DNA from: Escherichia phage vB_EcoM_E9 | Direction: 5' to 3' (one strand) | Sequence record: PP886229 | DNA: 64,000 nt | The notes under the pieces: generated by a model | What the model was told of the DNA's origin: nothing | Seen by the model: the letters and a program-made list of their open reading frames with translations, nothing else | The model's database searches: none | Shown: positions 4,378 to 58,378 of the stretch, piece by piece | Position numbering within the stretch: the stretch's first letter is position 1 | Layout of the letters: every line of letters starts with the position of its first letter | Translations under genes and position numbers: made by a program

Positions 4378-4721
4378 TATAGTTTCCTCATTAAATACTT
4401 TTTAAGTTGTGTGTTAGGTTTCTCAAAAACTTCTATAGAAGATATCTTGACAGACTCACCACGCATACCTGTATGTTTAAATATATAATACTCTAACATC
4501 CCTATGTACTTTGCTGGTAAGTCATACTTAACGTACACCGTTACAGAATCCTCAAATTCAACAACCTTTGTACCATCTTTGTAGTTAAACTCTTTAGGGT
4601 GGTTGTAATTGTCGATGTCGTACATTAAAAAGAGTCTTTTCCGTTGCATGTCGAGCTTGTTGGTTAAAGACTCTTTGATATCTGAGAAGTTTTTGTACAC
4701 TGTGACATGGAGATTACTCAT
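4377..4721 (-). CDS. hypothetical protein
   Basis: 114 aa ORF. Confidence 0.5.
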   Translation of the reverse strand: MSNLHVTVYKNFSDIKESLTNKLDMQRKRLFLMYDIDNYNHPKEFNYKDGTKVVEFEDSVTVYVKYDLPAKYIGMLEYYIFKHTGMRGESVKISSIEVFEKPNTQLKKYLMRKL

Positions 4722-5007
4722 CGTTAAACTCTCTGACGAAGAAATAGTTGACTTTATTATTACCTACCATAAGGTCAAAGCAGGTATTCTCAAAAGGTTT
4801 GTTGTAGGCATCGTATGAAGTGTACGTATCAGCTACTTGTTTAGTATTGAGCTTTTTACTTGATGGATTTAAGAGGCCACCATACAGTTTCTTGATAGCC
4901 TCTTCTACAACAGACCAGATGATTTCGTCAGTAATTTCTTCGTACAGGTCAAGTTCACGCTCTAGTGAGAAGTCACAAATAGGGAAAATAACCTGTACTT
5001 TACTCAT
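4714..5007 (-). CDS. hypothetical protein
   Basis: 97 aa ORF. Confidence 0.45.
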   Translation of the reverse strand: MSKVQVIFPICDFSLERELDLYEEITDEIIWSVVEEAIKKLYGGLLNPSSKKLNTKQVADTYTSYDAYNKPFENTCFDLMVGNNKVNYFFVREFNDE

Positions 5008-5408
5008 TAACGAATAACCTGTGTGACTTGAATTGCTTCAGTTACGGACAAATCACCTACTTTCTCTTCTTTGATAAAAGTGAAGGTGAGTTCAACAGGT
5101 TCTTCCTCTTCTTCTTCTTGCTCAACTGGAATACCGTTAAGCTCATCAAAGATTGATTGGGTAGTCCAGTCTTCTCCACCATCTGGATAGTGGATGGCAT
5201 AAAGAGGAAACTCTAAATTATACCAAGCAAAAACAGGACAACCGTCTGCATCATCTCGGCATCTGTGGAGGTACGTATTTGTACCTTCAAAATGCAAATG
5301 AAGATTGCCATTCTTCTCAAATAGAAGAGCATCTCGCAGGTCTAGTTCCTTATTTTCGCTGTAACGACTGACATCAACTTTAACGTGGATATGACTGTTA
5401 TTATTCAT
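5007..5408 (-). CDS. hypothetical protein with poly-Glu stretch
   Basis: 133 aa ORF, EQEEEEEEP run. Confidence 0.5.
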   Translation of the reverse strand: MNNNSHIHVKVDVSRYSENKELDLRDALLFEKNGNLHLHFEGTNTYLHRCRDDADGCPVFAWYNLEFPLYAIHYPDGGEDWTTQSIFDELNGIPVEQEEEEEEPVELTFTFIKEEKVGDLSVTEAIQVTQVIR

Positions 5409-5799
5409 AAAAACCTCTCTCTGCTTGTTCGATTTTTGCTCTTAAAGTTTCGCAATGCTGTAAATGGTAGTTAGCTTCTTGTTCATGTGTTGCTAACTGC
5501 CTTTCAAGAACAGTTTTATAGTAACCTGCAAGTTGCTCTTTTGTCAATGGGTGCTCTGAAATAATATCAAGTCCACTTTCACCAAGAGGATTGAATTGTC
5601 CATGCTCATTGACATTGTAAGTCTCAAACTTGAACATACCATTGTTCACAGACTCAATAGGTGACAGTTCAACAAGCTCTACAGTAAACCGTGTATACAC
5701 CTTGTCGCCTCTTGAAACTACATTGTTTCCAATGATGCGTACAAGTGAACCGTTACGAGTGTACTTAAAAGTCCCAAAGTCACTAGCCCAAAGTTTCAT
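5401..5799 (-). CDS. hypothetical protein
   Basis: 132 aa ORF. Confidence 0.5.
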   Translation of the reverse strand: MKLWASDFGTFKYTRNGSLVRIIGNNVVSRGDKVYTRFTVELVELSPIESVNNGMFKFETYNVNEHGQFNPLGESGLDIISEHPLTKEQLAGYYKTVLERQLATHEQEANYHLQHCETLRAKIEQAERGFYE

Positions 5800-55456: not shown

Positions 55457-55712
55457 TAGTTATAAAAGAGAGGGGTTCATACCCTTCTTTGAAGAAAAAA
55501 GTTTAAATAAATTTCAGGAAGAGTGTTTGACAAAGATTGATAGGTTCTATAGAATGCTCTACATGAAATGTGATGGAGGCGTTGAGGTAGAAGAAAAGTT
55601 CCATCACAGTATGATAACAGTCACTATTACTATACCTCGACATAATATTGGTTGGTTGTTTATAATTAAAGAAAATGTGTTTGAATATCAAGTATATCGG
55701 AGAATATCATGA
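55419..55712 (+). CDS. hypothetical protein
   Basis: 97 aa ORF overlapping the helicase 3' end; ATGA overlap with the next small ORF. Confidence 0.35.
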   Translation: MRMQMTARLKLSDSYKREGFIPFFEEKSLNKFQEECLTKIDRFYRMLYMKCDGGVEVEEKFHHSMITVTITIPRHNIGWLFIIKENVFEYQVYRRIS

Positions 55713-55858: not shown

Positions 55859-55930
55859 TTAATGTTTGACAATAGAGTATCAACAAATTAGAATTGGTAC
55901 TCTTCATAAATTGAGATAGAGGTTTAAATA

Positions 55931-56850: not shown

Positions 56851-57891
56851 ATGGAGAAGTATACGCTAACAAAACTTCCCGATTCAGTTACACATGTCTT
56901 TATTGACTCTGATAGTATTGCCTATAAAGGTGCTTGTGTAGTTGAGAAAGCAAAATATAAATATGTCAATAAACTCACAGCAGAAGAATCTGAACCATTT
57001 GATAATGCAAAAGACGCTGCAAGATGGTTAGCAGACCAGAGAATCTTTGTGGAAGAACTTGGCCTGACATTTGATGAAGATGAATGGGAAAGACAGACTT
57101 GGAAAGAAGCTAAGAGTGAAAAAGAAGCTATCATGGCTACTCAGCAGGTTCTTCAGGAATGGCTTAAGGTTGTTGGTAAAGAAAGAACTTGGGTAGGTTA
57201 TCTAACAGAGAAGGGTGTACATAAACATAAAGACATTAAAGGTCTTGAGCACCAATATCAAGGTAACCGTAAAGAGGCTGTCACACCAACACACTTAGTC
57301 GCTTGTCGTGAATATCTTTTATCCAGACCAGAGTTCAAACTCTTAAAGGGTGGCTTCGAAGCAGACTCAATCGTAATTGCTAAAGCTGAAAAGATGGGTA
57401 AGAAGGCTGCTCTTATGAGTATTGACAAAGACCTTCGACAAGCTGAAGGGACTTATTGTATTGATATGACTTATGAAAAGTCACCACTAATTTTTATTGC
57501 TGACAATAATGTTGGTAATATCTGGGATTGTCCTATCAAATCAAAACCAAAAGCTGCAAAAACAGTTGGTGTAGGTTTTAAATTTTTGTGCTATCAGGCT
57601 GTTGCTGGAGACAATGCAGACAACTACTTCGGACTTAAAGGTGCTGGCAAAGTAGCTGTGATGAATGCTTTAGATGGTAAAGAGACATACAAAGAGTGTC
57701 TTGATGCTATCTATGAACTCTATGCTAAAAAAGACTCTTATACCTATGTGTCATGGGATGGACAGACCGTTACAAAGACACCGTTAGAGTTAATGGAACA
57801 GCATTTCTGGATAGCATATCAAGAGAGAAATCCAAAAGATAATTTCTCTTTTAAGAAATATAATTGGGAGCCGTGTATGAATGAAGATTAA
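56851..57891 (+). CDS. 5'-3' exonuclease / flap endonuclease (RNase H-like)
   Basis: 346 aa in the replisome cluster; N-terminal acidic VFIDSDSIAYKG. Confidence 0.55.
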   Translation: MEKYTLTKLPDSVTHVFIDSDSIAYKGACVVEKAKYKYVNKLTAEESEPFDNAKDAARWLADQRIFVEELGLTFDEDEWERQTWKEAKSEKEAIMATQQVLQEWLKVVGKERTWVGYLTEKGVHKHKDIKGLEHQYQGNRKEAVTPTHLVACREYLLSRPEFKLLKGGFEADSIVIAKAEKMGKKAALMSIDKDLRQAEGTYCIDMTYEKSPLIFIADNNVGNIWDCPIKSKPKAAKTVGVGFKFLCYQAVAGDNADNYFGLKGAGKVAVMNALDGKETYKECLDAIYELYAKKDSYTYVSWDGQTVTKTPLELMEQHFWIAYQERNPKDNFSFKKYNWEPCMNED

Positions 57892-58378
57892 AGGATTTGG
57901 CAATTGTCCTACCTATGGTCATTGGGTATCTTTATGTGGGGAAGTTGACCCCACTAAACATTTTGGTTTTGTCTATTTAGTACACTGTAAGAAAACCGGA
58001 CAATATTATATTGGAAAGAAACAGCTTAATAGCGTGACCAAAAGAAAAGTTGCTGGCAAGACTCGGAAGAAGGTAGTCACTAAGGAGAGTGATTGGATGA
58101 CTTATGAGACTTCTTCTGAGTATATTAAAAAAGATATTGAGAGCTTTGGAAAAGAATTTTTTGACTTTTACATTATCCAAACCTACTACACGAAAGGTGG
58201 TCTAGTTTATGGTGAAGCAAACCTCCAACATAAATTCGATGTAATGACAAAAAGGATTGACTCTAAGCTCAGACTCTTCTACAATGCCAATATTGCAGCA
58301 ATTAAGTTTATCACTAAAGAAACTTATGAAGATGCTGAAAAAAGAATCCATAAGGTAATGAAAGCAAATTGTGCTTGA
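57881..58378 (+). CDS. GIY-YIG domain nuclease (homing-endonuclease-like)
   Basis: N-terminal GFVYLVHCKKTGQYYIGKK matches the GIY-(x10)-YIG pattern. Confidence 0.6.
   Translation: MKIKGFGNCPTYGHWVSLCGEVDPTKHFGFVYLVHCKKTGQYYIGKKQLNSVTKRKVAGKTRKKVVTKESDWMTYETSSEYIKKDIESFGKEFFDFYIIQTYYTKGGLVYGEANLQHKFDVMTKRIDSKLRLFYNANIAAIKFITKETYEDAEKRIHKVMKANCA

Follow-up and report, generated by a model that had tools for sequence, protein, structure and literature searches.

The gene located at positions 57,881 to 58,378 of a 64,000-nucleotide stretch of Escherichia phage vB_EcoM_E9 (sequence record PP886229; the whole stretch is called here the window) raises a simple question: is a GIY-YIG nuclease of a homing-endonuclease family, inserted among replication genes, a mobile element or a working part of the phage? 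A preliminary description, based on the letters of the DNA, had suggested a free-standing homing endonuclease, and with it a mobile-element insertion, or, as a fallback, a repurposed nuclease. The comparison of the locus across related phages, named beforehand as the test able to refute the mobile insertion, found the gene present and syntenic in essentially all of them. In the Ounavirinae, the GIY-YIG gene is a fixed, vertically inherited core gene, not a mobile one. Its fixation, synteny, purifying selection, absence of a DNA-binding tail and overlap with the upstream gene favour the repurposed nuclease, by a mechanism that can be proposed in outline: on balance, we lean towards a domesticated endonuclease partner of the phage replication and recombination module, fixed and coupled to the neighbouring exonuclease. 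The two genes concerned are:

57881..58378, + strand: GIY-YIG nuclease gene, with an ATG start and 165 amino acids, comprising a SegE-type nuclease domain only
56851..57891, + strand: gene of a T7-gp6/FEN-type 5'-3' exonuclease, the proposed partner (PHROG 107, E=2.4e-63; weak matches to Pfam 5_3_exonuc)

The protein encoded by 57881..58378, in which the peptide GFVYLVHCKKTGQYYIGKK is present, matches the Pfam family PF19835 (SegE_GIY-YIG) at residues 21-138 of 165 with 97.4 bits (cut-off 25, E=9.4e-28), and PHROG 447 over its full length (E=4e-48). The pattern first noticed was thus rightly read, and so was the position of the gene after a flap endonuclease, the upstream open reading frame (ORF) being the exonuclease listed above. 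PF19835 is the sole Pfam domain of the protein; no NUMOD or helix-turn-helix (HTH) DNA-binding tail was found in it, and the PADLOC and NCBIfam models gave no match. Sequence and predicted fold both bear out its placement in the GIY-YIG homing-endonuclease family. Many Felix O1-like myoviruses (Felixounavirus, genomes of ~88 kb) match the 4-kb stretch round the gene at 96-98% identity, the best of them being Escherichia phage vB_EcoM_D4. The guanine-plus-cytosine (GC) content of the gene is 34.9%, compared with a window mean of 39.1 +/- 2.7%, and its GC content at third codon positions is typical of the region, which gives no clear sign of a foreign origin.

The universality of the gene was assessed by tblastn of the exonuclease and GIY-YIG proteins against GenBank phage records (E<=1e-20), and in an independent sample of 28 IMG/VR loci found through the exonuclease. 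Phage records with the exonuclease number 303 and those with the GIY-YIG protein 305, every record with the exonuclease having the GIY-YIG gene as well; the counts for the two are identical in all ten genus names listed, among them Escherichia (119), Salmonella (80), Erwinia (29), Shigella (23), Felixounavirus (14), Citrobacter (11), Pectobacterium (4) and Hafnia (3). In all 28 IMG/VR loci the GIY-YIG gene lies directly downstream of the exonuclease gene, and in 27 it is an intact ORF of 165-166 amino acids, the exception being a frameshift in phage EC6. A gene-less allele was found neither in the ~300 GenBank records nor in the 28 IMG/VR loci; the sporadic presence among close relatives that characterizes homing endonuclease genes is therefore not seen. 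The order exonuclease, GIY-YIG, small ORF, MazG and, further on, ribonucleotide reductase (RNR) is kept in Mooglevirus, Kolesnikvirus, Pectobacterium phage Wc4-1 and two metagenomic Ounavirinae-like contigs; the presence and synteny of the gene extend across four Ounavirinae groups, down to ~50% identity. With the gene present and syntenic in essentially all relatives, the reading as a mobile insertion is not supported. The amino-acid identities between the window and its relatives are as follows:

Mooglevirus: GIY-YIG 86%, exonuclease 92%
Kolesnikvirus: GIY-YIG 62%, exonuclease 54%, NrdA 57%, MazG 38%
Most distant relatives: GIY-YIG 50-51%, exonuclease 47-52%

The identity of the GIY-YIG protein thus declines alongside that of its neighbours or more slowly. 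The pairwise ratio of nonsynonymous to synonymous substitution rates (dN/dS) is 0.00-0.057 for the GIY-YIG gene, 0.02-0.10 for the exonuclease gene and 0.02-0.15 for MazG. The synonymous sites of the GIY-YIG gene are near or at saturation (dS is 1.68 to Mooglevirus, and beyond that not calculable). Low dN/dS at such sites indicates selection at the level of the phage.

The junction between the two genes is equally informative. The last 11 nucleotides of the exonuclease gene overlap the start of the GIY-YIG gene, the ribosome-binding site of which lies within the upstream coding sequence:

57866..57870, + strand: GGGAG ribosome-binding site of the GIY-YIG gene, 10 nucleotides before the ATG and inside the exonuclease coding sequence

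Overlaps or abutments of 1-11 nucleotides with the upstream exonuclease gene recur across lineages, and the arrangement is conserved in Mooglevirus, Kolesnikvirus, Wc4-1 and the metagenomic relatives. No promoter-like or terminator-like site was found between the two genes by a consensus scan, which is a weak test given that its overall count was no better than in shuffled sequence. A self-contained insertion with its own expression signals, as expected of a free-standing homing endonuclease, is not what is found at 57881. On the 3' side, the GIY-YIG gene is followed by a 74-amino-acid ORF, a MazG-like pyrophosphatase gene, two small ORFs and nrdA. The GIY-YIG gene would be co-transcribed with the upstream T7-gp6-like exonuclease in an operon of replication and nucleotide metabolism, and its translation is probably coupled to that of the exonuclease gene. 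Three sigma-70-like sites (11/12 positions each) are found within 370 nucleotides at 55527-55555, 55637-55666 and 55866-55894 on the + strand, just upstream of the 285-amino-acid ORF that heads this gene string; they are possibly operon promoters.

The protein is also intact, and probably catalytically competent. An AlphaFold2 model built on a 90-sequence alignment (predicted local distance difference test, pLDDT, 94.3; predicted template modelling score, pTM, 0.88), which replaced a model from a 12-sequence alignment unreliable at residues 107-147, shows the GIY-YIG alpha/beta fold. In the model, the protein comprises the nuclease domain, an N-terminal strand region of 28 residues and one C-terminal helix, with the GIY and YIG motifs on the adjacent beta-strands 29-36 and 42-48. 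Sequence searches of the PDB with the window protein and with a 12-sequence profile gave chance matches only. In an alignment of 160 homologues, G29, Y32, Y43, G45, W72, Y75, S78, E112 and N135 are invariant, and W15 (157/160) and K47 (159/160) nearly so. Catalytic competence is suggested by this set of invariant residues, to which belong both motif tyrosines as well as the glutamate (on a helix) and the asparagine typical of the superfamily. The corresponding features are:

57965..57976, + strand: codons of the 'GIY' motif, G29-F30-V31-Y32 (G29 and Y32 invariant in the 160 homologues)
58007..58015, + strand: codons of the 'YIG' motif, Y43-I44-G45 (Y43 and G45 invariant in the 160 homologues)
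58028..58087, + strand: basic beta-hairpin of residues 50-69 in the AlphaFold2 secondary structure, a candidate DNA-contacting arm (8 lysines or arginines in the 23 residues 48-70)
58214..58216, + strand: codon of E112, the putative catalytic metal-binding glutamate on helix 105-118 (160/160; role suggested by the superfamily)
58283..58285, + strand: codon of N135, the conserved GIY-YIG asparagine of the YN motif (invariant, 160/160)

With regard to the family as a whole, an HMMER search covering all 1.84 billion representatives yielded 1,359 clusters at E<=0.001. Lengths are bimodal in the best 150 of these 1,359 clusters, with ~64 at 130-190 amino acids and ~75 at 210 amino acids or more. 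All ten long members scanned carry NUMOD3 and/or HTH modules after the nuclease domain, and those of RB16 (between nrdC and nrdD) and Vibrio phage K491 occupy classic homing-endonuclease positions. The window protein lacks the fusion of the nuclease to a sequence-reading DNA-binding module that is typical of homing endonucleases. Short forms are interspersed with long ones in a rough neighbour-joining tree (42 state changes versus 53 +/- 3 when shuffled), so that switching between architectures looks frequent; the window sequence falls in a clade of 12, all of them short, and the tree is too poorly resolved to order the short form versus the long one.

A truly mobile nuclease does exist at this very junction in some relatives. 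In Felix O1, an insert between the exonuclease and GIY-YIG genes encodes a 174-amino-acid protein with HNH_3 and AP2 domains (occupied site at 4501-5025 of locus L007). The features of the window that correspond to this element are:

57880..57881, no strand assigned: empty insertion site of the HNH-AP2 homing endonuclease (Felix O1 has 494 extra nucleotides exactly after 57880)
57601..58000, no strand assigned: tract of raised divergence between the window, which is HNH-less, and Felix O1, which is HNH-bearing (nucleotide identity 67-79%)

Beyond ~300 nucleotides on each side of the junction, the nucleotide identity recovers to 94-100%, and the changes within the diverged tract are mostly synonymous. 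Of the 28 IMG/VR loci, 12 carry the HNH-AP2 ORF. Its alleles form two or more classes, one at least 92% and another 53-58% identical to the Felix O1 protein, and a copy at 80% identity or more is found in 40 GenBank records. This sporadic distribution and the diverged flanks are the pattern expected of a homing endonuclease. The exonuclease/GIY-YIG junction is therefore a homing-endonuclease hotspot, but for the HNH-AP2 element, which is absent from the window. A single junction offers side by side a fixed nuclease of homing-endonuclease type and a truly mobile one.

Whether the association with an exonuclease extends beyond the Ounavirinae was approached through the neighbours of short homologues on long contigs, sampled irrespective of context. 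The sample is small (~16 loci in 8 lineages; L numbers are the labels of the loci):

Naomviridae phage DSS3_PM1 (L009): a FEN-type exonuclease of the same family as that of the window, directly upstream
Podovirus-like contigs with PolA, MazG and class II RNR (L013, L020): a Cas4-type exonuclease upstream, with an overlap of 4-8 nucleotides
Three contigs of another lineage (L019, L032, L034): a gp2.5-like single-stranded DNA-binding protein, a Cas4-type exonuclease and one small ORF, then GIY-YIG
Four T4-like contigs (L015, L016, L031, L033): Mre11- and Rad50-like genes upstream
Cyanomyoviruses (L004, L025): nrdA-nrdB upstream, directly in P-TIM68 and several genes away in S-RIM2
Stenotrophomonas phage Mendera (L005) and one other contig (L017): unrelated neighbours

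A short GIY-YIG gene directly follows a recombination or replication exonuclease in five of the eight lineages, and the exonucleases belong to three unrelated families (FEN-type, Cas4-type and Mre11/Rad50). Sequence-specific homing does not readily account for an association that follows exonuclease function and not one particular sequence. The GIY-YIG proteins are 52-75% identical within groups and ~35-50% between groups (one between-group pair reaches 54%), values that fit vertical descent within lineages. The cyanomyovirus homologue is near-universal as well, with 406 records compared with 462 for NrdB, and the cyanophage short homologues are 60-80% identical among themselves.

Two further observations were made in distant genomes. 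In the more distant Nitrincola phage 1M3-16, a NADAR-domain protein (5020-5454 of locus L030), and no GIY-YIG gene, occupies the slot directly after the homologous exonuclease. In distant Ounavirinae-like metagenomic contigs, the primase-helicase gene is immediately followed by one for a PIF1-family helicase (L011 1324-2670 and L021 152-1492), which is absent from the window.

What the protein might do can be outlined from these data. The GIY-YIG enzyme would introduce nicks or breaks, or cleave branched DNA, leaving the product of this cleavage to be processed by the exonuclease; the endonuclease/exonuclease pairs of T7 (gp3/gp6) and T4 are analogues for such a role. The PHROG annotation of one complete relative lists as nucleases only the exonuclease, the GIY-YIG gene and two HNH ORFs, with no resolvase, endonuclease VII or further conserved endonuclease among them; the GIY-YIG protein is therefore favoured as the endonuclease of the replication and recombination module. 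A broader and clearly more tentative idea is that tail-less SegE-like GIY-YIG proteins may be widespread, vertically inherited housekeeping endonucleases of phages, paired with whichever recombination exonuclease is present (FEN/gp6-type, Cas4-type or Mre11-Rad50), for example as the nick- or break-maker or the branch-cutter of recombination-dependent replication. They would then stand in for a resolvase or a 'gene 3' endonuclease, which Felix O1-like phages seem to be without, with repeated exchange between a housekeeping life and the selfish one of mobile Seg endonucleases. If the partnership with the exonuclease is true, the missing endonuclease of the Ounavirinae replication and recombination machinery would be identified, together with an endo-exo module recurrent in several unrelated phage groups, most marine cyanomyoviruses among them.

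Several points weigh against this partnership. The sampled contexts are few, and in the cyanomyoviruses, Mendera and one other contig the exonuclease neighbour is missing. Conserved DNA-metabolism genes commonly attract homing endonuclease genes too, so that adjacency is not proof of partnership. The equivalent of the superfamily arginine (R27 of I-TevI) is not clearly placed, R62 being kept in only 62 of the 160 homologues; the near-invariant K47 might substitute for it. As for essentiality, the PhageMaP text says nothing on Bas63 gene 57 (bas63_0057, MZ501086), the orthologue of the window gene, and two other phage-essentiality preprints do not cover Felixounavirus.

Four other explanations were weighed against the domesticated partner. 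The closest to the first proposal is a selfish free-standing homing endonuclease that has swept to fixation and cuts gene-less or diverged alleles during co-infection, by homing or marker exclusion. Such an origin would agree with the membership of the Seg homing-endonuclease family, with the long relatives at classic positions (e.g., nrdC/nrdD of RB16), with the HNH-AP2 homing endonuclease at the same junction, and with the intermixing of short and long forms in the tree. It is nonetheless unlikely: no gene-less allele was found in the records and loci surveyed, the protein has no DNA-binding module and its gene no promoter of its own, the gene overlaps the upstream one, and decay would be the expected fate of a selfish element once fixed, whereas the selection on this gene persists (dN/dS 0.00-0.057) while synonymous sites are near or at saturation. 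Decay itself has been considered, in the form of a dying or catalytically dead homing-endonuclease remnant kept only by its overlap with the neighbours. The DNA-binding tail was lost or never present, and frameshifted copies occur in EC6 and MET-P1-301, as such a remnant would predict; against it, none of the key residues varies among the 160 homologues, dN/dS does not exceed 0.06 over a whole ORF of which only 11 nucleotides overlap, and 27 of the 28 IMG/VR copies are intact. In MET-P1-301 the exonuclease gene is broken as well as the GIY-YIG gene, which makes a sequencing error likely there. This explanation is extremely improbable.

The two remaining explanations keep a service to the phage and change the target. 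A nickase like endonuclease II (EndoII, DenA) of T4 would start the breakdown of host DNA, and the exonuclease would yield nucleotides for the adjacent deoxynucleoside monophosphate kinase, MazG and RNR pathway. The domain-only GIY-YIG architecture, the size similar to EndoII and the location within a nucleotide-metabolism module speak for it. So does the cyanomyovirus homologue downstream of nrdA-nrdB, which in P-TIM68 stands directly after them, at the place of denA in T4, and several genes further on in S-RIM2. A 5'-3' exonuclease partner would also suit this role, as in the gp3/gp6 pair of T7 (PMC4124056). The lack of detectable DenA homology and the release of intact plasmids by 'superspreader' phages (PMC5241400), one of which, SUSP2, carries the orthologue, make host-DNA degradation of the EndoII type less likely, and we hold it to be improbable. 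A counter-defence or anti-parasite nuclease acting on host or satellite nucleic acid seems quite unlikely too. Domesticated homing-endonuclease nucleases with such roles exist, e.g., Odn of ICP1 (PMC10448857, PMC8263062), and Bas63 gp77, a Felixounavirus protein described as having a GIY-YIG domain, is reported to counter retron Ec67 (PMC11482910). However, genes of this kind are usually accessory or variable, while the GIY-YIG gene is universal and lies inside the replication operon, and it matched no PADLOC or NCBIfam model. The possibility that gp77 is the window gene itself was rejected: it is a different, unrelated protein, the window orthologue being bas63_0057. Bas63 gp77 (bas63_0077, L010 21949-22464) gave no Pfam GIY-YIG match but only PHROG 3500 and a weak HNH-family match, and its orthologous position falls past the end of the window.

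The window protein is, in short, an ordinary, already-catalogued member of a known GIY-YIG family whose product name is often wrong. The records of relatives call the gene "NAD synthetase", "GIY-YIG homing endonuclease" or "hypothetical protein". The first of these names was rejected, as Pfam and NCBIfam detect no NAD synthase domain in the protein and GIY-YIG is the only domain found. The "NAD synthetase" misannotation has propagated to PHROG 447, ORF107 of Felix O1 and hundreds of cyanophage records. Two annotations spreading through hundreds of phage records are hence corrected, this one and "homing endonuclease" where it is meant to denote a mobile element. The interest of the locus, which is modest, lies in the fixed, exonuclease-coupled and tail-less state of the gene, in its recurrence in other phage groups and in the contrast with the HNH element.

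Among known systems, the closest are SegE of T4 and other Seg-type free-standing GIY-YIG homing endonucleases, with which the window protein shares PF19835 and the motifs GxxY...YIGK, W72/Y75/S78, E112 and N135; Foldseek also matches it to many phage 'SegE-like' and 'Seg-like' proteins. It differs from them in lacking a C-terminal NUMOD3/HTH module and in being fixed, syntenic and overlapped with the upstream gene, and its pairwise similarity to T4 SegE itself is limited to the GIY...YIG stretch. I-TevI is intron-encoded and has a zinc-finger linker and an HTH domain. Its catalytic domain (PDB 1LN0) is only 15% identical to the window protein, and the helix that bears R27 is in the latter the basic beta-hairpin of residues 50-69. 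Endonuclease II of T4 (DenA, PDB 2WSH) is likewise a stand-alone GIY-YIG domain of similar size, non-mobile and located among nucleotide-metabolism genes. Orthology with it was rejected (BLASTP E=26, hhalign probability 0.3%), and DenA matches PF01541 and not PF19835. Compared with SLX1 and the N-terminal domain of UvrC, the window protein has no sequence similarity and neither RING/PHD nor UvrC modules. Odn of ICP1 and the HNH protein of HK97 that works with the terminase are, like the proposed partner, homing-endonuclease-derived domains serving the phage (PMC10448857), but their partners or targets have been identified, while the GIY-YIG protein is linked to the exonuclease by genomic association only. 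Finally, the 'superspreader' Felix O1-like phages have been reported to carry no homologues of known hydrolytic endonucleases (PMC5241400). Despite this report, SUSP2 carries the GIY-YIG nuclease at 86.5% identity (KT454806.2 41623-42111), and a conserved endonuclease is thus flagged in phages reported to have none.

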